From the NCBI GenBank assembly GCA_022705945.1, contig JAKJDL010000005.1:15825-79824 (forward strand): a DNA stretch of 64,000 nucleotides. Reading direction: 5' to 3'. Within the stretch, counting starts at the first letter, position 1. Each line of letters begins with the position of its first letter. Under the pieces are notes generated by a model. It saw nothing but the letters and a program-made list of their open reading frames with translations, was not told the DNA's origin and did no database searches. The translations under genes were made by a program, and so were the position numbers. Shown here in pieces: positions 25,048 to 56,315 of the stretch. This stretch comes from Candidatus Omnitrophota bacterium (GTDB lineage: Bacteria; Omnitrophota; Omnitrophia; Omnitrophales; Aquincolibacteriaceae).

Positions 25048-26673
25048 TTGGCGTGGATTTTATTAAACTATGAGCTCATGACGCACGCTAATCATCATCC
25101 CCATCATTCCAAACCCAAACCGCGTGAACAGTGGGGAACCCGGATGGGTTTGATCTTTGCCATGGCTGCCAATGCAGTAGGGCTCGGTAACTTCCTCCGT
25201 TTCCCGGTCCAGTGTGCCGCAAACGGCGGCGGGGCGTTCATGATCCCGTATTTTATCGCCTTCATCCTTCTCGGAATTCCGCTTCTCTGGATTGAATGGG
25301 GGATAGGCCGTTTCGGCGGCAAATACGGTCACGGGACGACGCCGGGAATGTTCCATTACCTTTGGCGGCACCCTCTCGCCAAATATATCGGAGCGATCGG
25401 GATCGCGGTGCCGTTTTTGCTTGTGATTTATTACAACTATATTGTCTCCTGGACGCTCGCCTATAGCGTATTTTCGTTCACGGGAAAATATGCCGGAATT
25501 ACGACTTTCCAGGGTATGGCGGATTTTTTGGCGGCCTACCTGGGGAAGGTTTCCAACTCCCATTTCCCGACGATCGCTACCGCTTTTCTTTTTTTTCTGA
25601 TCTCTCACGGCTGTATGCTTTGGGTCATCGCGATGGGAGTGAATAAGGGGATAGAACGGCTTGTGCGAATCGCGATACCCATGATCATCGTTTTGGGTAT
25701 TATCCTTGTGATCAGGGTCCTTTTCGTCGGTACACCGGACCCTTCCATGCCGGGAAATAGCGTGGCGAACGGATTTGGTTACATCTGGAATCCGGACTTT
25801 TCGACTTTGAAAGACAGCAGGGTGTGGCTGGCGGCAACGGGGCAGATTTTTTTCACGTTGAGCGTGGGATTTGGCGCGATACAGACCTATGCGAGCTATC
25901 TCAAACCCAAGGATGACGTGGTGCTTTCGGGGCTTGCGACCTGTTCCATAAACGAGTTTTGCGAAGTGATCCTCGGCGGATCCATCGCAATCCCCGTTAC
26001 GTTCGCGTTTTTCGGTTTGGCCCAGACGCAGGCGGTAGCGGCCGGAGGGGCATTTGATCTCGGTTTTTTCGCGTTACCGATTATTTTCCAAAAGATGATG
26101 TTCGGTCAAATTTTCGGTGCCGTATGGTTTTTCCTTCTTTTTCTTGCCGGGATAACTTCCTCAATCGCGATGGCTCAGCCGATCATGGCTTTTTTCCAGG
26201 AGGAATTCCGCATGACGCGCCGGACGGCGGCGACTATCGTGGGGATTATGACGTTTTTCTTTACTCTGCCCGTGATTTTTTTCTTGAAGCACGGATTTCT
26301 CAACGAACTGGATTTCTGGATCGGGACTTTCGCGCTGGTCGTTTTCGCCATTATCGAAATCGTCCTTTTTATCTGGGTCTTCGGAGAGGAGAGAGCTTGG
26401 AAAGAGATCAATTCCGGCGCGGATCTGCGCCTGCCGCGCGCCGTGATCCGGATTATGAAATATGTGACCCTGACCTACTTGTCCGTGTTGCTGGTTTTCT
26501 GGCTTGTTCAGGACGGGGCTTCAATTTTTTTGATGAAGAATGTTTCCGCGGCCGATTATCCCTATATCTGGTTTGCCCGTTTCATGATCGTTGGAGTTGC
26601 CGCATTGATGGTTTTTCTTGTTCATATTGCCTGGCAGAGAAAACACCATATTCAGCGGCGGGTCCCGGGCTAG
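25048..26673 (+). CDS. Sodium-dependent transporter, neurotransmitter:sodium symporter (SNF) family
   Basis: NSS signature 'REQWGTRMGLIFAMAANAVGLGNFLRFP' and about 12 TM helices. 541 aa. The start may be a later Met. Confidence 0.85.
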   Translation: MAWILLNYELMTHANHHPHHSKPKPREQWGTRMGLIFAMAANAVGLGNFLRFPVQCAANGGGAFMIPYFIAFILLGIPLLWIEWGIGRFGGKYGHGTTPGMFHYLWRHPLAKYIGAIGIAVPFLLVIYYNYIVSWTLAYSVFSFTGKYAGITTFQGMADFLAAYLGKVSNSHFPTIATAFLFFLISHGCMLWVIAMGVNKGIERLVRIAIPMIIVLGIILVIRVLFVGTPDPSMPGNSVANGFGYIWNPDFSTLKDSRVWLAATGQIFFTLSVGFGAIQTYASYLKPKDDVVLSGLATCSINEFCEVILGGSIAIPVTFAFFGLAQTQAVAAGGAFDLGFFALPIIFQKMMFGQIFGAVWFFLLFLAGITSSIAMAQPIMAFFQEEFRMTRRTAATIVGIMTFFFTLPVIFFLKHGFLNELDFWIGTFALVVFAIIEIVLFIWVFGEERAWKEINSGADLRLPRAVIRIMKYVTLTYLSVLLVFWLVQDGASIFLMKNVSAADYPYIWFARFMIVGVAALMVFLVHIAWQRKHHIQRRVPG

Positions 26674-27029
26674 GTTTTATCCGGCCTCTATTGTTTTAAT
26701 CGATTCTCCTGCCGAAGTTTTTTCCCGTTGATTCTGCATCGCAGATGCTGCAATGAGGACATATTTGACTTTCCTTGTACTCTTCGCTGTTAGTGTATCA
26801 ATACAAATAATAACAGTTAATATAGCAAAAAATATCTTTATATAGCATTACCATATCAAAACAACTAAAATATACTTAATTATGACTTGCGCATTCAATT
26901 ATTTCATGGCATGTTTTAAGTAGAAGAAAACAAAGAAGATATGACAAAAATGGCAATTTTGTTAAAAAAATTGTGCTGAGGGTGTTTATTGTATAGGAGT
27001 TTCGTATCTTTAAAAAGGCCACATTTTTT

Positions 27030-30000
27030 ATGAAAAAAATAACCTGTCAAAAAAAAGGAATGGGAATGCGAGTTATTGCATTGACGGTCGCGCTGACTTT
27101 TACGATGTCGGGCGTGGCGATGCCGTCGCCTGCCGGGTCTCCGGTTGCCGCAGACTCCGTTCATCTGCCGTTTTCAATCGCCGATCTGACTATTCCCGCG
27201 GAATACGGCACCGTTCGATTGGGCCCTGAAGCGGATGGCGATCGCGGCAAATCAGGTTCCCCGTCCTCTTCCATTCCCTATTCTTCATCCCGCAGCATTA
27301 TTTTGATCCAGGATGCGCACGCGGTCAATGATGCTCAGGAAAATATCCGAAGGATCATTGATCACCTGCAGTCACGGCAAATGGCGGATCTGGTTTTGCT
27401 CGAAGGAGCGAAAGGAAAGCTCGATCCCGTTCTCTTAAGGACTTATCCCGACGCGCGGAGGCGGACGAAGGTGGCCTCGGAATATCTTGAGCGCGCTGAA
27501 CTTACCGGAGCCGAAGCCGCTGCCGTGCTGAATAATGCAGAAGGTTCTTTCGAGGGATTGGAGGATTGGCCGCTTTATTCCGAGAACTTTTTTGCCTATC
27601 AGGCCGCGCAAGATGAAAAATCGGATATCCATAGAAAACTCGCAGTTTTTCGAACCGAACTTGACCGGAAAAGCAGTTTGAAAATATCAGCCTCCCTCCG
27701 GGAATTCCTTAAGTATTGGAGCGATTTCCGTTCCGAACGTATCTCGCTCATGGATCTGCTTTTTTACCTTCAGAGATTCGCAACGCTTGGTAAAAAGGAT
27801 GCGGGTTATGACGAGCTTTCGAGACTTCTTGATTCTCTCGGTTATGAGAAATCCGGAGCGGGGCAGGCTCTTGAGCCGGCGGTCCGGCGCATTGCGGAAG
27901 AGTTTAAAAGTAAATTCACACGGGGGCTCAATGCCCGGGATCAAACGAATTTTATTATGAATTATCAGAGATTCATGACGGGGCAGATGTCGGCGGGAGA
28001 GATGCTGAGTTACCTCGTCCGGTTCGGTGCCGAGAGGGGGCATCAGCTGAAGATGACTCCGGAGATCAGGAGACTTCTCGGACACAGCCAGACACTCTCG
28101 GAGATCAAAGGGAGCCGTCTTTTCAACGAGCTAAACAGGTTTTTGCCCGAGGCCGCGGAAAGTCTTGTCCGGTCTCATGAGGAGCTCGGAATATTGCGGT
28201 CTTATGAAAAGCTCTTCATCCTTGAAAGCCTTGCTTCCCTCGAGCTTACCCACGAGATGCTTTTGCAGTATCAAAGAGAGCCTGAGGCTTATCTGGGGCT
28301 CACCGGAGATCCGGAGCTTGGGAAAAGTCTTGTTCCCGCGATCGAATTCTATCAGGCGGCTCTGCGCCGCGATTTGTCCTTTTATGAAAAAGTTCGCCGA
28401 ATCCCGGCGGAGGTGCGCACTGTGGTGCTTGTCGCGGGCGGATTCCATACGAACGGTCTTGAACGGCTCCTTCGGGAGAACGGCGAATCCTATGCCGTTA
28501 TCACGCCGAAGATCGCGTCACTCGCGGGCGCCGAGAATTATTTCAAAGTGATGGCGGGCGATCTCTCTTACAAGAAATATCTTAAAACGACCTATTACGA
28601 CGCGCTTATGAACCATGCCGTCCGGAAGCTTACCGAATCACTAAGCGAGCCGGAATTCCGGCAGACGGTCAAGCTTTGGCGTGACAACCTGATCCGCGAT
28701 CTTTCGGCGAAGGGACGTATCACGGACATTGGGAAATACACCCGCTACCTCGATGAACTGAACATTGTCTATGCCGAGCGCTTTGCCGGAGAACTGAAAC
28801 CGCGTTCAAGAGAGGACATTCTTGACTTCGTGAAAGTGCAGCTTGAGAAATTCAAAACGGAGGCGCTGCGGGCCGCAAGGAAACGGTTTGAAGATCAGCT
28901 TGCCGGGGTCGCTCCCGGGCTTCGGCAAATGACTGGCGAAAAAGAGTTCGGCGGAGCGGCCGCTACTGATCGGGCGACCTTTGGAACTCCGCTTGGTCTT
29001 GCTCCCGGGAATGCGGTGTTGAGGGCTGAGGCTCGCGGCGCAAATGTTCCGGAGCCGGTCGTGCCGGCCGCCGTGCCGGGACTCCGGACCCCACGTACCG
29101 GGAGAGAACTCACGATGCTTTCTGCGGTGGATGATTTGATGGCGAAATGGCAAAAAGAGCTGGCAAACGACGAAAAAAACAGGCTTGGACGAGCCGGCTT
29201 GATCCGCAAACGTTTGACGGAACTCGAGCGCCTGAAACGGATCGTGAATGATAAGGAAAAACTTACGGCCTATTTATGTAAATTCGACAGCCCGAGTGAT
29301 CTTCAGGTGCGCGTGCGGGAAGGGGTGATCAGCCGCCCGCTTCCCGCGGACGTTCGTTTTATCTACCTTGATCCTGAAAAATGGGAACATCAGATACTCT
29401 GGGAGCTGACGGGGCATGAGCGATCGGTGCCGGAAGGAATCGCCTGGCCGTTGATATGGCCTGACGGAAGTTCGACGCGTTTTGTTATCGTGAATAATCG
29501 CGAGAAGCCCGCTTTTAGCGAGATCCTCATTATGGCGCATGAACTTTCGCACTGCCGGAGCAATCTCCCGACAGCCGAGATGCCGTATTTTTTCAATCGT
29601 CTGCTGGAAGGTTATCAGCAGCAGAACGAATTTGAGACGCTTGTGGAATGGGCCGAGCTTGACAGTGATTTTGGGCGGTTCGTGAAAAAAGTATTGATCG
29701 GAGAATTGCCGGTGGGTTGGGGTGTTTGGGAGTGGGCGGTCAGGACCTTCAGTCCCGGAACTTCCAAAGAGGTTCGTTACGGGGCACTGCGCGATGTGCT
29801 GCAAAATGTTAACGGTTACAGTGCCGAAGCGGCCATGGCGGACGATGTGGCCCGTCAGTTTTCCGGAGGAGCGGCGCTTGGGAAATTCTTCATCGAAAAA
29901 GATATGTCTGCGATCCGTAACGCGCTTGGGAATGAGCGGGCGCGGCTGCTGGAGAGGCTCTTTGAGGGAGTGAAACAAACAGGACTTCGCGGAACTTCTC

Positions 30001-33000
30001 TTGAATCCGTCACAGGACTGCTGATCGCGATCGCACGCGAGCTTATCTTGATCCCCGATAGGGTCTTCCCGGCCGGACATGTGGTTTCGGACGAAATTCT
30101 GGAGCGCGTCATTTTGCTCCTGAAGGTCAGCGGGGAGGCGGCAAGTTCTTATCCTGCCCGTCCCGTCACGCTTGATGAGGCAAGCCTGAAACTTTTCGAG
30201 AGGATGCTCTTTGAAGGCGAAATACCGTCGCAGGATAAGCAGATCGAAGTTTCAGATCGAATGTCGCAAGCGCTGGTTGCGGCGTCCCGTTCCGAGTCCC
30301 GTGCGGGAGAGGACGGTGTTGTGCCGGCACAGACGCGAGGGATTCAGCCCGGGACTGCCCGCGTGAGAGTATGGCGGAAGATCGCGAATGTGTTTGGGAA
30401 AATTCGCGGCGTCCGCGTGTTCAGCAGCGCGGATCCGGCCGCTATCGTGGAAAGTGTCGCGGCTCACCTTCGCAACTGGAACCCTGAAAGGAGCGGCAAG
30501 GTTCTCTTTGTCGCGCGGATGCAAGGTTCAGTGATTCAATTTGCGCTGGCTCCCGAAAGGCCCCGGTTCGGCATTTTAAAGTTAAACATGGATCACGGGT
30601 CGTTAGCCTTGAGTTTACCCAGAAATGAAGATGATCCTGAAGATCATCTTGAGGCTTGGCGATACGGCTACGCGAGCGGCTTTCTGGACTTCACCGACAA
30701 CACATTCGTAATCGTTCCGGACATGCATCTTAAAAATTTGGCGGCGACTAATACGGAAAAGGCAACGGAACTCGAAAAACTTATGTACGTTGTTAACAAG
30801 ATCGTCAGCGGCTCGCTGAAAAGCGCCGGTAAAAATCCGGAAGAATGGAATCTGCCGGGAGAGTATCCTCTGATACGGAGCGAATTGAGGGGGGCTTTGC
30901 CTGCGGTAAAGCCTTTGATCTACGATAAGGAAAAAGAAGAGGAGTTTTATGAGCTGTGGGGCAATCAATTAAAACAGAGCGGAAATCGCGATGCGGATGC
31001 GCTGATTGAAATTGCCCGGAAGCTTCGCCGGGCGCGTCAGGTTATTCCTTATGAGGAGTTTTCACGCGAGATGCGGGAGGTGGGACCGAAGCTCCGGGAT
31101 GCGCTTGAGGGGCGAGGGCAATACGCCGTGATTTGGGGAGAACCTCATACGTCCCGCCGGTGGGCATGGTTTCACATCAAGGAAGGGCTCCGGGAACCGG
31201 CCGCGACAGTTTATGAGAATCAGATTGCCGAGGCTCGCAGCGTCTCGACTTTTGTGATCGTGGATGACGCGAGTTATAGCGGCACCCAAATCAGGGAAAC
31301 GATTGAGAAAATAGCAAAACATAATTCTCGAGCAAATATTATTGTCGCGGTCCCCTACATGACGAAACGGGCGCATTCGGTGATTCGTTCGAGGAAGGGA
31401 CTGCCCGAGGGTGTTTCGATCACGGTTTTGGATCATAAAAATATGCCGACGCTTTCTGAGCTTCTCACGGAAGAAGAGAATAAGCTGGTTGACATGAAGC
31501 GCAAGCCTCAAGAAGAAGAGGATCGGGCGAGTGCGAACAGGCGTTTTTTGGGAAGGGTGTTCATGGGGGGGGGAAGTGGAAAAGAATATGATATCTTCAA
31601 GTATGCCACGGTTACGCTCTTTGAACATAAAATAGCCGATTCCTGGTCGGTTTATCAACGCATCGCACATTTCTTTGATCCTGTGCGGCCGCCCTACAGG
31701 GACAAAGAAAGCGCCTATTATCAGGAAGAATCAAAACAGCTTGCTGACGGAAATGACGGTTCCGCCCGCAGTTCACCTGCGGCAAAACCTCCGAAAGAGT
31801 TTGGGGATGCTGAAAAACCCCGCTCGGAAATCAGGTCGGGAGGTGATAAGGGAGAAAATCCCCTGGAGGATTCCGTTGCGCCGCCCGTTTTTAAAGAGCC
31901 CACCAGTAGACGCACTCCTCAGTTGGCGCGTACAGAGCTCCGCACAGCCGGGCAACTCGAGCTGTTCGGCCCTGCCGAATTGTTACCGCACGGGACGGCT
32001 CGGGTGCGGGTCGATCCGCAAACGGTCATTGAACTGGCCGCGTCGCAGATTCGCGAAGGGGTTGAGCGAAATATTGTAAAATGGGATCCGGAGGCCGGGG
32101 AATACCGCGTGACCGGCCAGAATGCCCGGGACGGCCTTGCTGCCGTTAGGGCCGCCGCGAACCGGCGGGATTTTTCCGTCGGGGGTCAGGATGTAAGCCG
32201 TGAGGCCCTGATTGCGGGAATCCTGACCGGGAATTACATTTATCGGGAGGACCGCGAAGATATCGCTTCCGGAGGCGGTTCCGTCCGTTATTTCACAGCC
32301 CGTCCGGAATCGCGTAATGTGCGGCGCTCGGAAATGCGGCAAAAAAATATTGCGGAGGCACAGAGGCAGAAACTTCTGGATCAAGCCCTGAAGACTGTGG
32401 TCGATCGGGGATTGATGACGAAGGTTCAGGTTGAGCAGGCGCTGAAAGTTTCCGGGATTAAGTGGGTCGGTAAAAAGGAGGGTATGGAGCGTATCGGTCA
32501 GCTTCGCAAAACGGATCACGGCTATCTTGTCGAATTAAGCATGGAATGGGCCCAATTGCCGTACCAAAAAGAGTTCCGGACCGCAGCAAAAAAGGCCCGT
32601 CTCTCGGAGGCGGAACTCCTGGATCTGTTTGAAAATAAACTCGCTTATTCGTTGACGCGGTGTCTGACACAAGTAAGCGTTGAGGAATTCATTCATGCGT
32701 TCCATTTGCCCAAGATCTTTACCCGTGATGGGTCCCTGCCGTCGCGTACGGTCATTTTCCTGAAGGAAACGAGTTTGTTGCGCTCCAGACCCGAAGATGC
32801 CCAAAAGATCTTCCGGTTCGAGAAAGTGGTGGAACTTCTTCTTGCCCAAAGGGAAGGTTCCCCTCTCCGGGAGCTTGTCGAGCGAGGAAATTTTCACAAG
32901 AAACATGTCCGTTACATCGAAATGTTGCGGGAGATTACCGAAGAAGATTTCTATGGCAAGACCTTCCTGGGGGAACCGCTCTGGCTCGGACGCATTGGAA

Positions 33001-36000
33001 AGTTTCTGGATGACATCAAGGGAATCTACCTCACTTTATCCGAGAAACCCCAGGATTCGAGACCTTCAGGGTTGCCCCGCCGGGGTTTGCGTGACATGGG
33101 CGATTTTCTGGAGGTTTTGAGGATCCAACGTTGGCATCGCAACTTTGTTACCCATTGGCTCCCCGTCGAAAGTAGTCCTCACAAAGACTGGACCGTAAAT
33201 GGCACGGCCGACCTGGCAGGCCGGAAAGTTCCCGTGATTGCAAAAAGAAAATTCTCTGATTACTACAGCGCCGGCAATGTGGGAGCAATTCTTTCATCCC
33301 GTTTGCCGGGGAAGAAGACCTTGTTTCTAATGGAAACCCTCCGGAAGATTCATGGGGAATCTTTCGAGCCGAAGGACATTGAGCGCATTTATGTCCGTGC
33401 GCTTGGAGCGGGGACTCTAAAAGCCGGTTTTTATGTTATGGTCGGCACAAGCCGCGGTATTTTTGATTTTGCCCTCCTCTTGCCGCAATCCGAGGACGAT
33501 GATGATCATGTCCCCATCGGGTTTCTTTTGAAGGGGGAACTGGAGGTGCTGGAAAAATCTGCCCAACGTGATCCCGAATTGGGGATCCGGTCCGGAGCTT
33601 ATTTGCCTCCCAAAGGGACGAATCCGGGCGCATTAAGCGTTTCGTACGGGGGACGGGATCTTGAAAAAATGCTCCAGAACAACGATGAGCAGATCCTTCA
33701 AAGCGCTCGCCTCGCATTCCTTGAAAATGCGATCTCCCGTTACATCCGCAACATGTTCCGAATGGGCGGGTACCACATGGTTTCGGATTTTAAGCCGGCT
33801 AATACCGCGCATCTTGATCTCACCGTGCGCATCATTGATTACGGTATCCACTTCTACAGTGAAAAGATCGCCCAAGTTACGTTCATGATCAATACGCTTG
33901 TCGAGGGGAAGAGCGTTCTAGGTAAGGAATGGAGTTACCCGCCGGAAACAGATGACCGACAATATATTTTTAGCGGTATCTTGAAAACCTTTACGGGCAG
34001 TCATAAGCCCAGCGATGCCGACTATGCGTATTATCTCGGGCAAGGACTGGATTTTTTGCGCCAGATATATTCGGATCCGGATGGGGCGCTTACTCCCGCT
34101 TCAAAAAAAGAGTTGGAGAAATTTTTCCGTAACGTCGGGAAGATCGAAGTGACGGATATGTTTACTCCCTTGGCGACGACAGTTTCGGAAGGGGATTTTG
34201 AGGCGGTTGCCCGGGAGGCTGCGGCCTCAAACGCGAAAGAAAAGAGGCCCATTCGTTTTCCGGATGTCCGGAATCTTTCCCTGAAAGGGCAGGATTTGAG
34301 TTATGCACGCCTGGCACAGCGCTCCGGAGTATCAGTCCCCTCGGATTCGGAGAAAATGCCCGTAGGGGATGTGATCCGTGTCCTGGATTATATTTCACAG
34401 GATTATGCCATTCTTCCGGATGAGATCGTTCTGGACGTGCTTGCCGCTTGGGCTCGCCGCTTTCGGGTTAAGATGCCGGAACTTAAAAGCCGGGATCATT
34501 ACCGTGCCTTGATACGGACTTTGCGGGAATCTGCGGAAGCGGTGTCCGCGTCCGGGCGCACTTCGGTCGAGCGTTCAGTTACAGTTAAAGACGAAGATCG
34601 CGATTTCTATCATGAGTTGAGCTCCTTCCAGATCCAAAAGATCTTCGAACGATTCTCCGGCCAGGATGAGGACAAGATCTCGTCCGCCGAATTAGCCATG
34701 ATGCCCTATAGCCTCGAATTTGTACTGCTGGATGTATTGAAAAGCCGGCAAAAAGAGTTCAATCCGGCCCTTTCTGCCGCCTATAAAGCAGCACTCAAAA
34801 AGCAGCAGGCCATTTCTTTGCTGGTTCCCGACGGGACATCGAGTTCTCCCGATTCCCCAATCGCCTCATCCCGCAAAAAAGCTCGCTCGGAAATGCGAGA
34901 AGAAGATATAGCGGAGGCGCAAAGGGAAATTTCTGATCGCGCGGAGGTAACGGACCGAGCGGCCAACGCGAACGCCGGAGAGTATGATCTTCCAGGTCAG
35001 TACGCGGTCTCGGAGAATTTGAAAATGTTTGTAGCGGGTTTAAAGGAACATTATTCAGGACATCTATCCTCTCTTAAAGCGCTAGATCTCGCAACGGGTA
35101 CGGGATCGGTCGCTTTCGCGATGGCCTCTGCCGGTGTTGGCACGATCACCGCTCTGGACATCAACGAAGGTATGCTTAAGAGGGCCCAAAGGTCGTCGTC
35201 GGCTTCACCCAAAGTAGTGTTTCTTCAGGGCGATATCTTTAATGCGCGACAGGTCCTTGAACGTGCGGGTAGGGATACGATCTTCGACCTCATAACGATC
35301 GGATATACGCTTCACGCCTATAAGCCTGAGGACATTACGGAGCTTCTAGCAACGGCTCGCACGATGCTTTCGGAAGGTGGGCGGCTTGCGATTCTTGGCC
35401 GTGGTTTGGATGAGATCTACAACCGGCGAACGATGAGCGATTACCGGAGAATCCTCCAAAAAGCCGGATTCGATTTGATGACGGTCGAAGGCAGCAATCA
35501 CTTTACTCTTTGGGCATCGAGTCGGAGCGAGGAGCCTATTTCGGGCGAGTTAAAGCTTGGGCGTGAATCTCGGAGGAGAACAAACAAACTGCCGGTTCAC
35601 GCGCGGGCGGAGGTGCGGGCGGAGCGTGCTTCAATTAAAGAGGAGTTGAGCGATTTCAGGAGGCGTTTGAAAGCAATCGGAGATCTTCCCGAGGGAGTCC
35701 TTTATCCGAATTCGGACGCGTCTTACCAGATGGTGCGGAACGGGATCGTTCCGGTGATAACCGCGGGGAGCCGGGTTCTGGAAATCGGAACGGGAAGCGG
35801 TGTCGTGCTTGATCTGCTCGCGGATGCCGGGCGAAATCTCGCCGGACTTCATTTTGTAGGGACGGACAAGAACCCCGCCGCTGTGCGAACTGCCCGGCGG
35901 ATGTTACAGAGGTTCGGCAATGTGGAAATTCGGGAGGGGAGTCTGTTTGATCCCGTCATAGGTGAAAAATTCGACGTGATCTTCTGGAATCCTCCCTGGT

Positions 36001-37184
36001 TTGACGGCCAGTGGAAGGACGAAGAAGCCGGTGCGGATATGGTGGACGAGGACTACCGCACCGTCCGCCGTTTTCTTGAAGAGGCTCCGGCCCATTTGAC
36101 GGCGAACGGGAGGATTTTCATTTTGTTTCCGGTGAAATATTTTCCAAAATTAAAATCGCCCTATCCTTTTACTTTGCGCGACAGTTATACGAACGGCAAG
36201 AACCTTAAAATCGGTCTCTTCGAATACGATCCGATGGCGTCCCGGCGGTCGGGCTTCAGCGAATTGCCCAAAACAAAGCGGACCACGTTCGACGCAGGAC
36301 ATGAGCGGCGCTCGGAGGTGAGGCTGAAGGAAGTTAGTGACGGGTTAGAAGGGAAAATTGGAGCGCTGATGTCGGATTTCGGGAACCGGGAGGATCTGCG
36401 AGGGTATATCCTGAGCGATGATTTCCCGAAGGTGCTGCAATCGATGTTCGGGGAATTTGCGGACACGGCTGTTCTTTTGAGGAATATCCGGTTGTTCGTG
36501 AGCGGAATTGAATTGCCGGCCGAGGCCGAGACGAATCCGGAGATTGTCCGCATTCTGCCGTCAGCGATGGCGAAACTGATCCAGTCGCTTTCTGTAATCA
36601 AGGATCACTCTTACACGATCGGGGTGGAAGCCCCGTCATCGGGAGAGAAGACGGTGTTTATGGAACAGCTTCTCTCTGTCCTCTCGCAGCGCGCGGGACT
36701 CGTTAATGAAATCGCCGTGGCGGGACGTCTTGACGGGGAAGGACAAAGCAGTCTCAGGAAGTTGGAGATTGTCGTGCGGCCCGTGATCCCTAACCGTCCG
36801 TTTATCGCGAGGAACAACCAGACCGCTGTGCCGATGGTCGTCAGTTCGGCGGAAGCAGAGATTTCTTCGTTCAACGCGATCTTTCATCCGATCATGTCGG
36901 AGGCTGACGGTATGACTGATCCGTTTGTCCGGGAATATACCGATCTGCTGAAAGTGGTTGCGGCGATCCATCTGGCGGAGCTGACGACGCGAAATTCGAA
37001 ACTGCTAAACCAACCCCAATTGCTCAGAGCCGAACTTTTCAAGAGTCTTAATATCGCGGAGCGCGCGGAACTCCAGAACCTTATTCAAATGAACACCTCG
37101 GGCCGCGGCTTTACGATCTCGAGTGTGGCGGTGAAGATTTTCCTCGAAATGCAGGCCCGCGAGGCGATCCTGCGGGCGGCGTAA
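27030..37184 (+). CDS. Giant (3384 aa) signal-peptide-bearing multi-domain protein: zincin HExxH motif, PRTase-like motif, eukaryotic-like protein-kinase motif set, two class I SAM methyltransferase domains
   Basis: Single uninterrupted ORF. The likely real start is the ATG at 27066 (RBS AAAGGAA; signal peptide MRVIALTVALTFTMSGVAMP). Motifs read directly: 'IMAHELSHC' (HExxH), 'FVIVDDASYSGTQ' (PRPP-binding-like), 'LGAGTLKAG...HMVSDFKPANTAHL...RIIDYG...SYPPE' (kinase), 'LDLATGTGSV...VVFLQGDIF' (MTase motifs I/II), 'VLEIGTGSGVV...FDVIFWNPPWFDG' (NPPW amino-MTase). Confidence 0.7.
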   Translation: MKKITCQKKGMGMRVIALTVALTFTMSGVAMPSPAGSPVAADSVHLPFSIADLTIPAEYGTVRLGPEADGDRGKSGSPSSSIPYSSSRSIILIQDAHAVNDAQENIRRIIDHLQSRQMADLVLLEGAKGKLDPVLLRTYPDARRRTKVASEYLERAELTGAEAAAVLNNAEGSFEGLEDWPLYSENFFAYQAAQDEKSDIHRKLAVFRTELDRKSSLKISASLREFLKYWSDFRSERISLMDLLFYLQRFATLGKKDAGYDELSRLLDSLGYEKSGAGQALEPAVRRIAEEFKSKFTRGLNARDQTNFIMNYQRFMTGQMSAGEMLSYLVRFGAERGHQLKMTPEIRRLLGHSQTLSEIKGSRLFNELNRFLPEAAESLVRSHEELGILRSYEKLFILESLASLELTHEMLLQYQREPEAYLGLTGDPELGKSLVPAIEFYQAALRRDLSFYEKVRRIPAEVRTVVLVAGGFHTNGLERLLRENGESYAVITPKIASLAGAENYFKVMAGDLSYKKYLKTTYYDALMNHAVRKLTESLSEPEFRQTVKLWRDNLIRDLSAKGRITDIGKYTRYLDELNIVYAERFAGELKPRSREDILDFVKVQLEKFKTEALRAARKRFEDQLAGVAPGLRQMTGEKEFGGAAATDRATFGTPLGLAPGNAVLRAEARGANVPEPVVPAAVPGLRTPRTGRELTMLSAVDDLMAKWQKELANDEKNRLGRAGLIRKRLTELERLKRIVNDKEKLTAYLCKFDSPSDLQVRVREGVISRPLPADVRFIYLDPEKWEHQILWELTGHERSVPEGIAWPLIWPDGSSTRFVIVNNREKPAFSEILIMAHELSHCRSNLPTAEMPYFFNRLLEGYQQQNEFETLVEWAELDSDFGRFVKKVLIGELPVGWGVWEWAVRTFSPGTSKEVRYGALRDVLQNVNGYSAEAAMADDVARQFSGGAALGKFFIEKDMSAIRNALGNERARLLERLFEGVKQTGLRGTSLESVTGLLIAIARELILIPDRVFPAGHVVSDEILERVILLLKVSGEAASSYPARPVTLDEASLKLFERMLFEGEIPSQDKQIEVSDRMSQALVAASRSESRAGEDGVVPAQTRGIQPGTARVRVWRKIANVFGKIRGVRVFSSADPAAIVESVAAHLRNWNPERSGKVLFVARMQGSVIQFALAPERPRFGILKLNMDHGSLALSLPRNEDDPEDHLEAWRYGYASGFLDFTDNTFVIVPDMHLKNLAATNTEKATELEKLMYVVNKIVSGSLKSAGKNPEEWNLPGEYPLIRSELRGALPAVKPLIYDKEKEEEFYELWGNQLKQSGNRDADALIEIARKLRRARQVIPYEEFSREMREVGPKLRDALEGRGQYAVIWGEPHTSRRWAWFHIKEGLREPAATVYENQIAEARSVSTFVIVDDASYSGTQIRETIEKIAKHNSRANIIVAVPYMTKRAHSVIRSRKGLPEGVSITVLDHKNMPTLSELLTEEENKLVDMKRKPQEEEDRASANRRFLGRVFMGGGSGKEYDIFKYATVTLFEHKIADSWSVYQRIAHFFDPVRPPYRDKESAYYQEESKQLADGNDGSARSSPAAKPPKEFGDAEKPRSEIRSGGDKGENPLEDSVAPPVFKEPTSRRTPQLARTELRTAGQLELFGPAELLPHGTARVRVDPQTVIELAASQIREGVERNIVKWDPEAGEYRVTGQNARDGLAAVRAAANRRDFSVGGQDVSREALIAGILTGNYIYREDREDIASGGGSVRYFTARPESRNVRRSEMRQKNIAEAQRQKLLDQALKTVVDRGLMTKVQVEQALKVSGIKWVGKKEGMERIGQLRKTDHGYLVELSMEWAQLPYQKEFRTAAKKARLSEAELLDLFENKLAYSLTRCLTQVSVEEFIHAFHLPKIFTRDGSLPSRTVIFLKETSLLRSRPEDAQKIFRFEKVVELLLAQREGSPLRELVERGNFHKKHVRYIEMLREITEEDFYGKTFLGEPLWLGRIGKFLDDIKGIYLTLSEKPQDSRPSGLPRRGLRDMGDFLEVLRIQRWHRNFVTHWLPVESSPHKDWTVNGTADLAGRKVPVIAKRKFSDYYSAGNVGAILSSRLPGKKTLFLMETLRKIHGESFEPKDIERIYVRALGAGTLKAGFYVMVGTSRGIFDFALLLPQSEDDDDHVPIGFLLKGELEVLEKSAQRDPELGIRSGAYLPPKGTNPGALSVSYGGRDLEKMLQNNDEQILQSARLAFLENAISRYIRNMFRMGGYHMVSDFKPANTAHLDLTVRIIDYGIHFYSEKIAQVTFMINTLVEGKSVLGKEWSYPPETDDRQYIFSGILKTFTGSHKPSDADYAYYLGQGLDFLRQIYSDPDGALTPASKKELEKFFRNVGKIEVTDMFTPLATTVSEGDFEAVAREAAASNAKEKRPIRFPDVRNLSLKGQDLSYARLAQRSGVSVPSDSEKMPVGDVIRVLDYISQDYAILPDEIVLDVLAAWARRFRVKMPELKSRDHYRALIRTLRESAEAVSASGRTSVERSVTVKDEDRDFYHELSSFQIQKIFERFSGQDEDKISSAELAMMPYSLEFVLLDVLKSRQKEFNPALSAAYKAALKKQQAISLLVPDGTSSSPDSPIASSRKKARSEMREEDIAEAQREISDRAEVTDRAANANAGEYDLPGQYAVSENLKMFVAGLKEHYSGHLSSLKALDLATGTGSVAFAMASAGVGTITALDINEGMLKRAQRSSSASPKVVFLQGDIFNARQVLERAGRDTIFDLITIGYTLHAYKPEDITELLATARTMLSEGGRLAILGRGLDEIYNRRTMSDYRRILQKAGFDLMTVEGSNHFTLWASSRSEEPISGELKLGRESRRRTNKLPVHARAEVRAERASIKEELSDFRRRLKAIGDLPEGVLYPNSDASYQMVRNGIVPVITAGSRVLEIGTGSGVVLDLLADAGRNLAGLHFVGTDKNPAAVRTARRMLQRFGNVEIREGSLFDPVIGEKFDVIFWNPPWFDGQWKDEEAGADMVDEDYRTVRRFLEEAPAHLTANGRIFILFPVKYFPKLKSPYPFTLRDSYTNGKNLKIGLFEYDPMASRRSGFSELPKTKRTTFDAGHERRSEVRLKEVSDGLEGKIGALMSDFGNREDLRGYILSDDFPKVLQSMFGEFADTAVLLRNIRLFVSGIELPAEAETNPEIVRILPSAMAKLIQSLSVIKDHSYTIGVEAPSSGEKTVFMEQLLSVLSQRAGLVNEIAVAGRLDGEGQSSLRKLEIVVRPVIPNRPFIARNNQTAVPMVVSSAEAEISSFNAIFHPIMSEADGMTDPFVREYTDLLKVVAAIHLAELTTRNSKLLNQPQLLRAELFKSLNIAERAELQNLIQMNTSGRGFTISSVAVKIFLEMQAREAILRAA

Positions 37185-37301
37185 CGTACGTAACGTAATA
37201 GACACGAGGCACACGACGCACGTCTTATGGGCGCAGAGCCGCAGGGGAAAAGAAATTCCATGCGGTGTGCGATGTGCGGCATGTGTGTGGCCGTTTCAGT
37301 G

Positions 37302-37700
37302 TTACGCGGCACCGCCTTTTTCGATCATGATGTAGGTCTCCCAGTGCGGTTTCCAGTCCAGGATAACGCGGATGTGGAGCAGGGAATTCTCTTTCACGAC
37401 GAGACTTGGCGGGAACGCGTGCTTGTGCCAGCGGAAAAGGACGCTGTTCGTGACCGGTTCGATATCCATCGGCGAGGTCTTCACGAGTTGACCGTCCGGC
37501 AGTTCGTATTCCAGCACTTCTTTATGGAATTTCCTGTCCTTGCGCCAACACGTTACGGCATAGATCCGGTCGAAGTGGTGAGGGAACGAAGGAACATGAA
37601 TGTTGCTCAGAAGGCCGTCGGCTTTGTAGGTGTCCTGCGGGCCGGAATCAAAGCTCCGGCATATCATGAATTGTAAGAGGCGGATCGAATCGGTTTCCAT
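37302..37700 (-). CDS. Hypothetical protein (132 aa), convergent with the giant gene
   Basis: Minus-strand ORF with protein-like composition. The overlapping + strand ORF 37227..37676 is less protein-like. No motif recognised. Confidence 0.35.
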   Translation of the reverse strand: METDSIRLLQFMICRSFDSGPQDTYKADGLLSNIHVPSFPHHFDRIYAVTCWRKDRKFHKEVLEYELPDGQLVKTSPMDIEPVTNSVLFRWHKHAFPPSLVVKENSLLHIRVILDWKPHWETYIMIEKGGAA

Positions 37701-38373
37701 GGGTGTGCATACTAATGAAAACAGGGGCCGTTTTCAAGAAGAGTGAAGGGAGAATCGGCTGCCGCCGGCCGATTATGCTTGTTGAAGCGCCTCTTATAAA
37801 TGGCAGGAGCCAAATTTAATTCGCGAAATGCGGCACAGTCTTTCGGCCGGGGAGGTCCACAAACTTCTTGAGGCGGATCCCGGCAAGAGGTTGTCTGCGT
37901 CCTTCTTGCGGCAGTGCTGATCACGCCCGCGCTCAAGGAATTTATCGGGAACGGGATGATTTTCACCGTTATCCCGATCAATCCCGGCGTCGGATTCATT
38001 CAAGAGGCCAAGTTGCCGGCGCCGTTCCGGAATCTTTCGGAGATTTGTAACGGATTTTGACCGTTTTTTGCCCCTTTTCTCTTGAAAAATCTTTGTTCCC
38101 GTCATAGAATACGCTTCCGTTTGTACAACCTGATGTTCTTGCCCGAAGTTGTTCTCAACGACCTTGGTAGTCGAGGATTGCCCTGTCAGCGGATTGTCCG
38201 GCAGGTTTACCGGACCCCGCAATTGCGAGATCGTTTTGACCGTATGGAAAACACCGCGGGCGAGGCGTGTAGCTTCCGTTTCTGAACATGAAATGCAATA
38301 ACGCATTCAATCTTGTAGAAAGGCACCCATGACACCTCAAACGTTGGAAAAAGATCAATCCGGAGCCAAAAAA

Positions 38374-41300
38374 ATGAATAAAAGTTTTGCAACGATGGAT
38401 GCCAATGAAGCCGTCGCTTACGTCGCCTACCGCATTAATGAATGTATCGCGATCTATCCCATCACGCCGTCCTCGCCGATGGGTGAATGGGCGGACCAGT
38501 GGGCTTCGGAAGGAAAGAAGAACCTTTGGGGCACGATCCCTTCCGTCTCCGAGCTTCAGAGTGAAGGCGGCGCGGCGGGTGCCGTGCACGGCGCCCTTCA
38601 GCGCGGAGCTCTCACGACGACATTCACGGCGTCGCAGGGCCTTCTATTGATGATCCCGAACATGTATAAGATCGCCGGGGAGTTGACCCCCATGGCGATG
38701 CACGTGACGGCCCGTTCGCTGGCCGCGCACGCGCTCTCGATCTTCGGGGACCACGCTGACGTGATGGCGGTCCGCCAGACCGGTTTCGCGATGCTCGCCT
38801 CGGATTCGGTCCAGGAAGCCATGGACATGGCCCTGATCGCCCAGGCCGCGAGCCTTGAATCCCGCATTCCTTTTCTGCATTTCTTTGACGGGTTCCGTAC
38901 TTCCCATGAGGTCCAGAAGATCAGCGTTCTTTCCGAAGACCAGATCCGCGCGATGATTGACATGACAAAGGTGATGGAACACCGCGCCCGCGCGCTTTCC
39001 CCGGAAAACCCGGTCATTCGCGGCACGGCCCAGAACCCGGACGTCTATTTTCAGGCTCGGGAGACCGTCAATAAATTTTACAAAGCCTGCCCCGACATCG
39101 TTCAGAAGGTTATGGACAAGTTCGCGCAAGTGTCCGGCCGTCAGTACAGCCTGTTCGAATACAGCGGGCCGAAGGACGCCGAGCAGGTTATCGTGATCAT
39201 GGCTTCCGGCGTTGAAGTGGTCGAAGAGACCGTCAAGGCCCTTAGTTCGAAAGGCGCGAAGGTCGGCTGTCTCAAGGTATCGCTTTACCGCCCCTTTGAC
39301 GTCAAACGCTTCGTTAGTCTTCTTCCCGAAACCACCCAAAACCTCATCGTTCTTGACCGCACTAAAGAACCCGGCGCCGTCGGCGAGCCGCTTTATCTGG
39401 ATGTCGTCAGCGCGCTCCAGGAAGCGTCTCAGAACGGCTGGTCAGGGTTCAAGCAGACGCCGAAAATCTACGGCGGACGCTACGGGCTTTCGTCCAAGGA
39501 GTTCACGCCGGCCATGGTAAAGGGAATCTTTGATTGCTTTTCTTCCGGCAAGGGAAGGCACGGCTTCACGATCGGCATCAACGACGACGTGACGAACACG
39601 AGCCTTCCGTATGACCCCGCTTATTCGATCGAATCCGACAAGATTGTCCGGGCGATGTTCTACGGGCTCGGTGCCGACGGGACGGTCGGGGCGAACAAGA
39701 ACTCCATCAAGATTATCGGCGAGAACACGGACAATTTCGCCCAGGGATTTTTTGTGTATGACTCCAAAAAGTCCGGCGCGATTACGGTGTCGCACCTGCG
39801 GTTTGGTCCCGACCCGATCAACCTGCCGTATCTGATCAGCACGGCGGATTTCCTGGCGTGCCATCAGACCGTGTTCCTTGAAAAATATGACATGCTTCGC
39901 AACTTAAGGGCGGGCGGGACGTTCCTGCTGAACGTGCCGTGGGAGGCCGACAAGGTCTGGGAGAATATCCCGGTCGAAGTGCAGAAAGAGATCCTCGAAA
40001 AGAAGCTCAAGTTTTACGTGATCGACGCCTACAAGGTCGCTTCCGAAAGCGGCATGGGCATGAGGATCAACACGATTATGCAGGTTTGCTTTTTCGCGAT
40101 CTCGGGCGTGCTCCCGCGTGAGCAGGCGATAGCCGAGATCAAGAAGTCGATCCAGAAAACCTACGGTAAAAAAGGCGAGGAGGTGGTCAGGAAGAACCTC
40201 CAGGCTGTGGACATGACGCTTGCGCACTTGCACGAGATCAAGGTCCCGGCGGTTGCCGACAGCAAGGTCAGAAAGCGCCCGCCGGTTACCGGGGACGCGC
40301 CGAAATTCGTGAAAGATGTTCTCGGGGTCATTGTGGAAGGGCGCGGCGACGACCTGCCGGTTAGCGCGTTCCCGGTGGACGGCACGTTCCCGACCGCGAC
40401 GACGCAGTATGAGAAGCGTAATATCGCTCTCGAGATTCCCGTGTGGGAGCCCGAGCTTTGCATTCAGTGCGGGAAGTGCAACTTTGTGTGCCCGCACGCG
40501 GTGATCCGGATGAAGGCCTACGATCCGAAATATCTCGCGGATGCTCCCGAGGGTTTCAAATCTTCCGATGCGAAGATGCCGGTTTTTAAGGGCCAGAAGT
40601 TCACGATTCAGGTCGCGCCGGAAGATTGCACCGGCTGCGGCCTCTGCGTGGAAACGTGTCCTGCCAAGAGCAAGACTGATCCCGAGAAAAAAGCCATCAA
40701 CATGGCCTCCCAGCAGCCGCTCCGCGAACCGGAGAAGGTGAATTGGGCGTATTTCCAGAGCATTCCCGATTTTGATCGCACGAAGCTGAATACCGGGATG
40801 ATCAACCAGCAGCAGGCCATGCGACCCTTGTTTGAATTTTCGGGCGCCTGCGGCGGTTGCGGCGAGACGCCGTATGTGAAACTGATCTCGCAGCTTTTCG
40901 GTGACCGCGCCGTCATTGCCAACGCAACCGGCTGCTCCTCGATCTACGGCGGGAACCTTCCGACCACACCGTGGGCCAAGGATGCCAACGGCCGCGGGCC
41001 GGCTTGGGCCAATTCGCTGTTTGAGGATTGCGCGGAGTTCGGCTACGGGTTCCGTATGGCGATCGACAAACAGAAAGAATTTGCCTGTGAACTTTTGTTA
41101 AGACTTGGCGACAAGGTCGGAGCCGACCTCGCGAAGGCACTGATCGAAGCCCCGCAGAAGACCGAGGCGGACATCCAGGCCCAGCGCGGGCGTGTCGCGG
41201 AGCTCAAGAAAAAACTTGCTTCCGTTAGCCCGGATCCCGATGCCGCCCAGCTGCTTTCGCTGGCGGATGTGCTCGTCAAAAGGAGCGTCTGGAGTTTCGG

Positions 41301-53353: not shown

Positions 53354-54976
53354 ATGCAATGGATAGCGCCTGCAGAAAAGAATGAAGCGAACGATCTTCT
53401 GGAAAAACGGCTGTGGGACGCCGCCGATCAGCTCCGGGCTAACTCCGGCCTGACTTCAGCCCAATACTCCCAGCCCGTCCTTGGGCTTATTTTCCTACGG
53501 TTTACCGACAGCCGGTTCAAGGTCCAGCAGGCCAAGATAAAAAAAGCAGGTAAGACCTCCCGGCGCGGATCCCGCGTCGAAGATTCTGCCGCCTATCACG
53601 CCGAAGGCATCCTGTATCTGGCGCCCGGAGCCAGGTTCGACGAGCTCCTTTCATACCCTGAAGGCGGTAAAGGCGGAAAGTCGCTCGGCCAGGCGATCAA
53701 CGAAGCCATGAGGAATATCGAGCGTGATAACCCTCAACTCGCCGGTGTCCTTCCCAAGACCTACGAAACCTTCGAGGCTCGGATCCTTGCGGAGCTTCTT
53801 AAAGTTATTTCCACGATTCCGTCTGACCTTGAAGGCGACTCCTTCGGAAAGATCTACGAATACTTTCTGGGTGAATTTGCCATGACCGAAGGACAAGCCG
53901 GAGGAGAGTTCTACACGCCGACGGCTATTGTCCGGTTGATCGTCGAGATTCTCGAACCGTTCCATGGGCTTATCCTTGATCCTGCCTGCGGATCGGGCGG
54001 TATGTTCGTCCAAAGCGCTCGGTTTGTGTCAGAACACCGGAAGAATCCTTCGAGCGAAATCAGCATCCACGGACAGGAGAAAGTAGACGCCACAGTCCGC
54101 CTCTGCAAGATGAACCTCGCGGCGCACGGTCTTGAAGGAGACATCAAGCAGGCCATTACCTATTACGATGACCTCCACAAGAGCACAGGCCGGTTCGACT
54201 TCGTTCTCGCCAATCCTCCGTTTAACGTCAATGCCGTGGACAAGGAACGTCTCAAAAGTGACGTCGGCCCGGGCAAACGCTTCCCGTTCGGGTTGCCACG
54301 CACAGACAACGCGAACTATCTCTGGATCCAGCTGTTTTATTCGGCGCTGAACAGTAAGGGCCGCGCCGGTTTTGTGATGGCTAACTCCGCGTCTGATGCG
54401 CGCTCTTCCGAACAGGAGCTTCGCAAAAAGCTCATCGAAGACCGTGCTGTTGATGTGGTGATCGCTGTCGGGCCGAATATGTTCTACACCGTGACGCTCC
54501 CGTGCACGCTCTGGTTTTTGGATAAAGGGAAGAAGAAAACACCGCGAGCGGATACGGTTTTGTTCGTTGATGCGCGGCAAATTTATCGACAAATATCAAA
54601 GGCTCAAAGAGACTGGACTCCGGCGCAGATCAGTTTTATCTCCAATATTGTGCGGCTCTATCGTGAAGAAGAACCCGACTTTACCCTTGGCAGGGATGAA
54701 GCGGCCAAGCGGGTTTCCGAAGCCTTCGGAAAGAAACCCCAATACAAGGACATCCCAGGTCTTTGCAAGGTTGTGACGATCAAGCAAATTGAAAAACAGG
54801 GCTGGTCGCTCAATCCCGGCCGCTACGTTGGTGTTGCGCCCGGTGGAACCCTCAGCAACGAGGACTTCAAGGAGCAGTTTGAAACTCTGAACGAAGAACT
54901 TGAAACCTTGAATGTTCAGGCCCGCAAACTTGAGCAAACCATCGCTCGCAACGTGACGGAGATTCTAGAGGCATGA
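53354..54976 (+). CDS. hsdM: Type I restriction-modification system, DNA methyltransferase subunit
   Basis: HsdM N-terminal '[13 protein letters not shown]...VLGLIFLRF'. SAM motif '[11 protein letters not shown]'. Catalytic 'NPPF'. 540 aa. Confidence 0.9.
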
Positions 54977-56175
54977 CGAAGGTCGAGCTCCGCACAGTTC
55001 GAATTGGTGACTTGGGCCGCGTCATCACCGGCAAGACACCACCGAGCGCCTACCCAGAACTGTTCGGGGAGGAATTTCCGTTTCTTACCCCTACAGACAT
55101 TGACGGTGTTGCGCGTTACATCGAACCAGAACGCTTCCTATCGCTAAAGGGATACGATCACCAGCAACAACTGCTTCTTCCGCCGCGCTCTGTCTGTGTT
55201 GTTTGTATTGGCGCTACGATCGGCAAAGTCTGCATGACCAACAAGCCATCGTTTACAAACCAGCAAATCAACTCCGTCGTTGTGAACGAAAGGGAACATG
55301 ACCCCATTTTTGTTTACCACCTTCTTACGACCTTGCGCGATGAGTTGAAATTAAATGCTGGTGGCGCTGCGACGCCGATCATTAACAAGACAGCTTTTTC
55401 AGAGATCGAAATCAATGTCCCGACATTGCTGGAGCAGCAGCGGATTGCGAACATTTTGTCGGCTTACGACGAACTGATCGAGAACAGTCAGCGGCGCATC
55501 CGGATATTGGAGACGATGGCCCGTGCTCTTTACCGTGAATGGTTCGTCGATTTTCGTTTTCCCGGCCACGAAAAGCATCCCCTTGTTGCCTCATCCATTG
55601 GCAATATCCCCAAAGGCTGGGAGGTCAAAAAACTCAAGGATGTCGGTCGCCTCACAATGGGTCAGTCGCCCAAGTCAGAGTTCTATAACGAGACGGGAGA
55701 AGGTCAGCCATTCCATCAGGGGGTGACCGATTTTGGTGATCGCTTTCCAACCGACCGCTTGTTTTGCGCCATCGAGGGGCGCGTTGCTGAAGCTGGCGAC
55801 ATTCTGTTTAGTGTTCGTGCTCCCGTCGGACGCATGAACATTGCTGATAAGAAAATCATCATTGGTCGTGGCTTGTCCGCTATCCGAGATAACAACGGCC
55901 ATCAATCCTTTCTCTGGGAGCAGTTGCGCAACCGTTTTGCTAAAGAAGACATGATGGGTAACGGTGCAATCTTTGCAGCAGTAACAAAAGATGATATGCA
56001 AGGCATCGAGTTGCTTTGTCCGCCGCAATCACTCGTTGTGGATGCCGAGAAGCACCTTGTTTCGATTCACGAAAAAGTTAGCATTCTCACTCGCCAAATT
56101 CAAAACCTCCGCCGCACCCGCGATTTTCTTTTGCCGCGATTAATGTCGGGACAATGTAATCTTCAGGAGGTTTAA
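54973..56175 (+). CDS. hsdS: Type I restriction-modification system, specificity subunit (two TRDs)
   Basis: Overlaps the hsdM stop. Duplicated TRD architecture with conserved central and C-terminal coiled-coil repeats ('[29 protein letters not shown]', '[22 protein letters not shown]'). Confidence 0.85.
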
Positions 56176-56315
56176 GTCGTGGCTCTTCCGCACAGATTCA
56201 TTTTGATGGCGAGTTTTATTAACGAGGGAGCTTTTGAGGAATCGATTGAACAAAGTCTGACCCCCAATCGCGGGGGTGAAAGGAATACCAGGGGAAATTG
56301 AAAAGAGGAAATGAA

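Follow-up and report, generated by a model that had tools for sequence, protein, structure and literature searches.

Bacteria of the phylum Omnitrophota are widespread, ultra-small and apparently host-dependent, and the huge multi-enzyme proteins that they encode are a recognised puzzle. Two studies have described such giants: the 'Archaeovorins' (West-Roberts et al. 2023, bioRxiv 10.1101/2023.11.21.568195) and a 'multi-enzyme metabolic cluster' class (Nielsen & Lui 2026, bioRxiv 10.64898/2026.06.07.730766). Both deal with proteins of at least 10-30 thousand amino acids (kaa) that have many transmembrane (TM) helices and SecA-DEAD, C39 or S8 peptidase domains, and in both cleavage is suspected. 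West-Roberts et al. (2023) leave open whether these proteins work as one chain or are cut up, and with no cleavage points known, structural analysis was blocked. Here we analyse a gene from a 64,000-nucleotide (nt) stretch of a Candidatus Omnitrophota genome (contig JAKJDL010000005.1 of assembly GCA_022705945.1), which is called the window below and is numbered from its first letter. The gene (27030..37184, + strand) encodes a conserved N-terminal head followed by a cargo of unrelated modules, with the short linker motif R-[S/A/T]-E-x-R (RSExR below) between them. It belongs to a family whose members at the same genomic position retain the head and exchange their cargo module by module at the linkers.

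The family resembles the published giants in its phylum, in an N-terminal signal and in its many unrelated enzyme domains (methyltransferases (MTases), kinases, glycosyltransferases, HATPase, HEAT), which are mostly unique in sequence. The window protein lacks what marks the Archaeovorins, namely more than 30 kaa, many TM helices, a divergent SecA DEAD domain and C39/S8 peptidases: it has 3.4 kaa and one hydrophobic helix. Neither paper mentions a conserved head, a linker motif or positional hypervariability, and a literature search for the motif, for polyproteins together with Omnitrophota and for the phosphoribosyltransferase (PRTase) family PRTase-CE found nothing relevant. No earlier description of this head, its linker code or its positional hypervariability was found, and multi-enzyme giants of Omnitrophota are already described as such. 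At 2-4 kaa the family offers a tractable version of these giants, with a candidate processing domain, a boundary motif and module shuffling at a fixed site.

In its logic the protein is closest to the MARTX toxins of Vibrio and to polymorphic toxins. MARTX proteins carry several effectors and are autoprocessed between the effector domains, with cuts after Leu; here the linker motif is a different one and the candidate protease is N-terminal. Pfam scans with E values up to 1 found no RTX or glycine-rich repeats, no C80 protease and no type I secretion signal in the window protein. Polymorphic toxins share with the family a conserved N-terminal part, hypervariable cargo, several paralogues per genome and conserved flanks, but they end in one terminal toxin, where the family has many tandem enzyme modules. 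No Rhs, filamentous haemagglutinin or PT-type domain and no immunity gene was detected by Pfam scans.

The head is present at no fewer than 127 public loci: 59 come from species-representative genomes and 68 from metagenomes. With few exceptions they are labelled Omnitrophota or 'uncultured bacterium', and one genome often has several paralogues. An exact-peptide scan of genome contigs with the whole protein gave no match, and the loci were found by head alignment instead. For residues 1-665 of the window protein, homologues of 46% identity were found only in Candidatus Omnitrophota, and their contigs are short and break off within the gene. At each locus the head opens a long open reading frame (ORF); 32 of these ORFs are complete, at 1.4-4.0 kaa, and many others extend past the 10-kb flank. 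Three larger proteins of 4.6-6.5 kaa (P0007, P0008 and P0010) also carry the head. The window head lies directly behind an N-terminal hydrophobic signal and is 40-48% identical to those of its positional orthologues and 21-33% identical to those of distant paralogues.

The gene sits at the same position in about 20 loci, with a transaldolase-phosphoglucose isomerase fusion (Tal-PGI), an amidase and an SNF symporter upstream, and a small ORF, PFOR and acetyl-CoA synthetase downstream. These flanks are 63-84% identical, and the gene between them always opens with the head and runs from 1.6 to more than 4 kaa. Beyond the head little is held in common: at most 11% of the window cargo is shared with any of 17 head relatives, and among 18 positional relatives most pairs share 0-20% of their cargo (rarely up to 60%). 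When the window protein was compared by BLASTP with 106 family members, almost nothing matched outside the head, the exceptions being the PRTase, the MTase with the NPPW motif and the tail. Hypervariable cargo amid housekeeping genes is the mark of genes that take part in host interaction or in conflict between organisms.

In the relatives, 149 inter-linker modules were put through a Pfam census, which gave 57 families, among them HEAT, MTases, GT2, Fic, HATPase_c, acyltransferase, Pkinase, FHA, intein and dehydrogenases, and the majority of the modules had no match. Intein_splicing was matched in one module (E 1e-23) and Fic in two (E 2e-17), so the cargo repertoire includes self-splicing and AMPylation-type domains. 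The original prediction had held that a fusion such as that in the window is not a known protein family. The exact combination of modules is indeed unique, but the protein is one member of a large family that is defined by its head, with a linker motif and mosaic cargo. Its description as a multi-activity effector or surface enzyme, of the kind encoded by giant genes in uncultivated lineages, fits relatives that are Omnitrophota. At four loci (L004 1-9264, L044, L079 and L094) a second RSExR-rich giant ORF, truncated at its 5' end by the edge of the locus, lies directly upstream of the head gene, which suggests tandem arrays of family members.

The head itself (aa 41-664, 27150..29021, + strand) has an alpha/beta core in two parts, aa 84-186 and 432-512, with about 250 residues of helical insert between them. 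Seventeen columns are invariant across 35 diverse heads: Q94, D95, A96, H97, Q103, E125, G176, E178, L223, F440, Y441, R447, G470, G471, H473, P493 and Y504. Within this set D95-A-H97, E125, R447 and G470-G471-x-H473 follow the His, Glu, His (GxxH) order of the Tiki type, and the equivalence to Tiki residues is one of motif order only. The Tiki superfamily includes endopeptidases (Tiki, RRSP). Against the Tiki-superfamily Pfam models the best E values were 0.012 (PF04187), 0.033 (PF01963), 0.043 (PF18950) and 0.087 (PF05139), all below the cut-offs, and these families were the most frequent among the sub-threshold head matches. When the core alone was scanned, PF04187 appeared in 4 of 19 heads and PF18950 in 2 of 19, with PF05139 also present, and among full-length heads PF01963 appeared in 2 of 35.

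Profile searches with full and core-only heads gave only noise against PDB sequences. Foldseek with an AlphaFold 2 (AF2) model of the head, which was built from a shallow alignment and has a mean confidence (pLDDT) of 59, returned helical noise. The alignment was shallow because an index search with the 35-sequence head alignment gave the same four proteins only. A TraB/Tiki-like domain had been proposed for this region: the invariant residues and the sub-threshold Pfam signals make that proposal suggestive, and the profile, PDB and Foldseek searches gave it no significant match. The head is probably a divergent hydrolase-like domain of the Tiki/TraB/ChaN/erythromycin-esterase superfamily, and it differs from Tiki, TraB, PrgY, ChaN and the erythromycin esterases in the helical insert that splits its core.

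The linker motif stands between the modules of the window protein at nine sites, which begin at aa 665, 1087, 1283, 1598, 1634, 1766, 2619, 2859 and 3094. The first of them, RAEAR (aa 665-669, 29022..29036, + strand), marks the junction of head and cargo and aligns with PPRSEVR of P0001. Nine sites compare with 0.4 expected, and none of 1000 shuffles reached nine; among the other window ORFs of at least 100 aa the motif occurs in one 120-aa stretch only. The enrichment extends to the family, where 88 proteins carry 1.67 motifs per kaa, against 0.085 in shuffles (about 20-fold) and 0.32 in other ORFs of the same loci. Where those other ORFs have at least three motifs, they either continue a head ORF after a frameshift or are tandem neighbours with a truncated 5' end. 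In 81 heads (the first 600 aa of each) there is not a single site. The first motif falls at aa 600-800 in 37 of the 70 relatives that have one, at least three motifs are found in 56 of 81 relatives, and the median spacing is 278 aa.

At position 2 of the motif Ser makes up 73% and Ala 23%, at position 4 Val, Leu and Met together make up 61%, and the motif is preceded by small and followed by acidic residues. Its surroundings are hydrophilic: within 10 aa on either side the hydrophobic fraction is 0.20-0.22, compared with a background of 0.33. Of the blocks of homology within the family, 47% begin no more than 30 aa from a motif (random 14±3%), 32% have a motif near their end (random 12±4%) and 20% enclose one (random 49±7%). 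Where a motif does lie within an alignment, it is kept in full in 40% of the partners, and its flanks are 27% identical. The linker motif is thus under selection and is placed at module boundaries. Two other roles were considered for it and rejected. Against RSE-V/L/M-R as an internal Shine-Dalgarno or start signal stands the lack of a preference for GAG, which encodes the Glu in 44% of sites against a background of 38%, with GGAGGTG at only 2 of the 9 window sites. A phosphorylation motif does not agree with Ser being replaced by Ala in 23% of sites.

The architecture suggests a mechanism, which we favour at slightly less than an even chance: the gene would encode a Sec-exported, hypervariable multi-enzyme precursor that is cut at its linkers, with the head as candidate protease and the cargo as effectors. 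The chain consists of a predicted Sec-type signal, the conserved head of about 600 residues and a string of autonomous modules, namely two orphans, a PRTase, a small orphan, an atypical protein-kinase-like enzyme, two S-adenosylmethionine (SAM) methyltransferases and a shared tail, each of which follows a short hydrophilic linker with the motif. After export the chain would be processed at the RSExR linkers. The head is a natural candidate for the protease that would cleave them, because it is found throughout the family, precedes the first linker, has the invariant His, Glu, His and Arg and bears a weak likeness to the Tiki superfamily. Processing would release a strain-specific cocktail of enzymes, and these would serve a host-dependent bacterium as effectors within another cell. 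The modules that can be identified depend on ATP, SAM or phosphoribosyl pyrophosphate (PRPP), so that they would be active in a cellular interior only. Taken with the hypervariability and with the host-dependent lifestyle proposed for Omnitrophota, this dependence suggests effectors that are delivered.

Should the chain be processed at RSExR, the motif would also show how to divide such proteins before their structures are predicted. A bolder form of the proposal is possible but doubtful: RSExR would be the cleavage code of a new kind of secreted polyprotein, cut at every linker by a Tiki-like N-terminal autoprotease, and the rapidly reshuffled enzyme cocktail, with PRTases, Fic enzymes, kinases and methyltransferases in it, would be delivered to the cells that these bacteria live on. 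Were it true, the larger Omnitrophota giants could be parsed into functional products.

Several points weigh against processing and delivery. Export and cleavage are both read from the sequence. Enzymes that depend on SAM, ATP and PRPP would have no cofactors outside the cytoplasm unless they were delivered into a cell. Distant head clades (P0007, P0008, P0010, L116, L117 and others) keep the invariant head residues and do not have RSExR, so that the head has no strict need of the motif; no other enriched linker motif was found in these RSExR-negative clades. The codons of the motif are biased as well. Its first Arg is CGY (CGC or CGT) in 82% of sites compared with a background of 41% (L003-L129), its Ser is TCN and almost never AGY, and codon 4 ends in G in 59% of sites, with GTG at 60% against a background of 31% and GCG at 73% against 32%. 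This synonymous bias may reflect shared descent or some role of the nucleotides themselves. The longest direct repeats in the DNA of the gene also fall on linkers, as do the repeat families D4 and D10. The longest of all is a 42-nt repeat, 83% identical (32325-32366 and 34884-34925), which brackets the module S7 and encodes RSEMR-xxx-IAEAQR. These repeats fit shared descent of the linkers, or a role of linker DNA in the exchange of cassettes.

Such observations can be taken further, to a motif that acts mainly on the level of nucleotides: CGY-KCN-GAR-NNG-CGN would be a homology patch or recombination site for cassettes, and the peptide a by-product. The synonymous-site bias, the three longest linker-associated direct repeats, which lie on motifs and include the one around S7, and the module-wise exchange of cargo with breakpoints at motifs all agree with this. 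We consider it clearly unlikely as the main role. The positions that determine the amino acid carry 1.0-2.0 bits and the synonymous positions 0.15-0.41 bits, position 2 may be Ser, Ala or Thr and position 4 is open to many residues, as in a peptide motif, and 15 nt is short for homologous recombination. A role of the DNA would moreover be compatible with one of the protein, and the two are not exclusive.

A second alternative keeps the motif as a peptide and leaves the chain whole. The product would then act at the surface or in the periplasm as uncleaved 'beads on a string', and RSExR would be a structural or docking element for a partner, a chaperone or the translocase. A motif that lies in hydrophilic linkers and is under selection would fit any linker function at the level of the protein, the published Omnitrophota giants have been discussed as possibly uncleaved, and the distant head clades manage without the motif. 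We regard an uncleaved chain as unlikely, if deserving of some weight, since so strict a motif, five residues with one Glu and two invariant Arg, would be odd in a passive spacer, and since it often stands directly at the junction of head and cargo. The modules also recur in any order and position, which argues for independent function.

Both proposals, with and without cleavage, place the protein outside the cytoplasm, for which the evidence is at the N-terminus. The candidate export signal or signal anchor (about aa 1-40, 27030..27149, + strand) consists of MKKITCQKKGMGMR, an 18-residue hydrophobic helix and PSPAGSPVAA. After the K/R-rich start comes the only 19-residue window of the protein that is strongly hydrophobic (aa 13-33), the one place where the Kyte-Doolittle value exceeds 1.6, apart from a borderline window at aa 990. 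Homologues keep the N-terminal helix and follow it with A-x-A-type sites. An N-terminal signal peptide had been called here; its elements are present in the window protein and its homologues, and they point to Sec-type export, which we infer. In the opposite topology the helix would be an anchor, and the bulk of a membrane-tethered multi-enzyme would face the cytoplasm with its SAM, ATP and PRPP. It is true that the identifiable modules all use cytoplasmic cofactors. The positive N-terminus and the A-x-A sites of the homologues, taken with the positive-inside rule, would predict export of the C-terminal part, and a cytoplasm-facing enzyme is in our view barely credible.

The reading of the gene as one long chain depends on its continuity. 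The frame runs from ATG to stop over 27030..37184 (+ strand), encodes 3384 aa plus the stop codon and has no internal stop or frameshift in the window, as was claimed for it, and its length is beyond chance. From residue 1290 to residue 3384 the product is identical to P0005, which comes from an independent NCBI assembly. No record of the full 3384-aa product was found in the contig index searched. The quoted sequence motifs are all present, about 20-35 residues or less from where the original prediction had put them: IQDAHAV at aa 93, LLEGA at 123, VVLVAGGFHTNG at 465, AHELSHC at 836, FVIVDDASYSGTQ at 1408, LGAGTLKAG at 2125, SDFKPAN at 2252, DYG at 2270, PPE at 2304 and NPPW at 2987.

Continuity is qualified by a public contig, JAPXSP010000006.1 (GCA_033812995.1; locus L130), which differs from window positions 30094-39184 by 1 mismatch in 9,091 nt. 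The mismatch turns codon 1285 from GAA (window 30882-30884; L130 789-791), the Glu of the RSELR linker, into TAA, and two genes are consequently called in GCA_033812995.1. The chance that a random substitution strikes one of the eight motif sites in this interval is about 1.3%, and no further in-frame stops were found inside the motifs of relatives. The stop has its parallel in four relatives (L038, at 5523, L045, L049 and L104), where an in-frame stop or frameshift separates the head ORF from an RSExR-rich cargo ORF; these cases may be assembly errors, pseudogenes or genuinely split genes.

The giant ORF might on these grounds be an assembly or consensus artefact that joins two or more genes, a head protein of 1284 aa and a multi-enzyme protein of 2095 aa, as the TAA that is the sole difference between near-identical contigs and the four interrupted relatives would allow. 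We hold this to be very unlikely. There are the 32 relatives with complete head-plus-cargo ORFs of 1.4-4.0 kaa, and the window itself is free of stops and frameshifts. The TAA also sits exactly in a linker, so that the modules are intact in the one-gene and the two-gene version alike.

The cargo modules, all on the + strand, were numbered S2 to S10 after the head. S2 (aa 665-1086, 29022..30287) is an orphan that holds AHELSHC, and it has no Pfam, NCBIfam or family homologue. A zincin had been proposed at this site on its HExxH, which occurs once in the protein; 0.073 occurrences are expected and at least one is found in 7.4% of shuffles (P 0.074), which is the level of chance, and with neither a profile match nor a homologue for the segment (Pfam, NCBIfam and family proteins) the proposal finds no support. 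S3 (aa 1087-1282, 30288..30875) is a further orphan and opens with linker motif 2, RSESR.

S4 (aa 1283-1597, 30876..31820) opens with linker motif 3, RSELR, and is PRTase-like. It matches PF24390, PRTase-CE, at aa 1393-1473 with E 4.6e-6 and a marginal 27.1 bits against a cut-off of 27.0, and the PADLOC model PRTase_III-A with E 1e-5; its PRPP-binding loop is VIVDDASYSGTQ at aa 1409-1420. A phosphoribosyltransferase had been predicted here, and at the threshold that call is confirmed, as PRTase-CE, with a PRPP loop that exceeds chance. A homologue in a relative (L004 aa 1902-2190) is 49% identical to aa 1283-1581 and reaches 30.5 bits with PF24390, and RSExR bounds both modules at each end. 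S5 and S6 (aa 1598-1765, 31821..32324) are a 36-residue hydrophilic spacer between RSEIR and RTELR and then an orphan module of 132 residues.

S7 (aa 1766-2618, 32325..34883) is a large module that opens with RSEMR and holds a protein-kinase-like core at aa 2098-2350 (33321..34079). Among 1.84 billion representatives, HMMER detected 12 relatives of aa 1865-2545, each a module within another large protein, and a word-index search with aa 1771-2619 gave no match. Over about 680 aa S7 is homologous (27-31% identity) to modules in the giants P0006-P0010, three of which have the same head. The key residues G2128, K2131, E2170, D2253, N2258 and D2270 are invariant in nine homologues, and a catalytic D-x-K-P-x-N loop (D2253, K2255, N2258) and the metal-binding motif D-[YF]-G (D2270) stand at the spacing of protein kinases. 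In the AF2 model of the core (pLDDT 62.5) beta1-3, alphaC, beta4-5 and a helical lobe follow one another in the bilobal kinase order, and the best matches at fold level are Bud32/PRPK, WaaP and N-acetylhexosamine kinase.

Sequence profiles did not recognise this core: searches of Pfam, NCBIfam and PDB sequences gave no kinase profile match, even with a nine-sequence profile. The eukaryotic-like kinase that had been predicted from these motifs is accordingly borne out in spacing, invariance and modelled fold order and not by profile, and it is at the level of fold only that S7 would be an atypical protein-kinase-like enzyme. Like S7 in fold, in D-x-K-P-x-N and in D-[YF]-G, Bud32/PRPK, WaaP and N-acetylhexosamine kinase are small atypical kinases, whereas the core of S7 is embedded in an 850-residue module and lacks the conserved beta3 lysine. 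Its invariant Lys is placed in the glycine-rich loop (G-x-G-x-x-K). A Lys in the glycine-rich loop is also seen in WNK kinases.

The two methyltransferases that follow had both been predicted, and both are confirmed by Pfam beyond chance. S8 (aa 2619-2858, 34884..35603) opens with RSEMR and is a class I SAM methyltransferase: aa 2680-2790 match Methyltransf_25, _31, _12 and _11 with E 2e-21 to 2e-17, the first with 76.7 bits against a cut-off of 27. S9 (aa 2859-3093, 35604..36308) opens with RAEVR and is an amino-methyltransferase of the HemK/MTS type, matching PF05175 (MTS) at aa 2910-3032 with E 4e-14 and 53.1 bits against a cut-off of 23. Its motif IV, (N/D)PP(Y/F/W), reads NPPW at aa 2987. 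HemK/PrmC models match it with E 1e-16 to 1e-18, yet far below their equivalog cut-offs; a release-factor glutamine MTase in the PDB gives E 1e-8 and the PADLOC model mad2 E 3e-37. Modules of the S9 type recur elsewhere in the order in three relatives, L072 (twice), L010 and L009. The C-terminal tail domain S10 (aa 3094-3384, 36309..37184) opens with RSEVR and has no profile match. Among the 32 other complete family proteins, 6 (L050, L088, L087, L037, L093 and L094) end in a region homologous to its last 150-290 residues, and S10 is also homologous to L098.

The giant gene has co-directional housekeeping neighbours. Upstream lie HflX, the transaldolase-phosphoglucose isomerase fusion (957 aa, 20424-23297, + strand, conserved in orthologous loci), a LysM amidase and the SNF symporter, and downstream PFOR, an ADP-forming acetyl-CoA synthetase and NrdD. 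The gene is preceded by an AT-rich intergenic stretch of about 330 bp (26700-27029), the GC fraction being 0.47 over 26001-28000 and about 0.53 in the gene, which is consistent with a promoter of its own; a scan for promoters and terminators gave only weak, uninformative consensus matches. Behind the gene a 132-aa ORF without a Pfam match (37302-37700, - strand) is called by NCBI in the near-identical contig. In positional orthologues the region is kept at the same position with 43-48% identity, as found by tblastn in the overlapping + frame, and the + strand ORF at 37227-37676 is probably a shadow of the minus-strand gene. Further downstream the window contains a type I restriction-modification system (53354-60379, + strand), with HsdM at 53354-54976, a probable HsdS at 54973-56175 and HsdR at 57161-60379.

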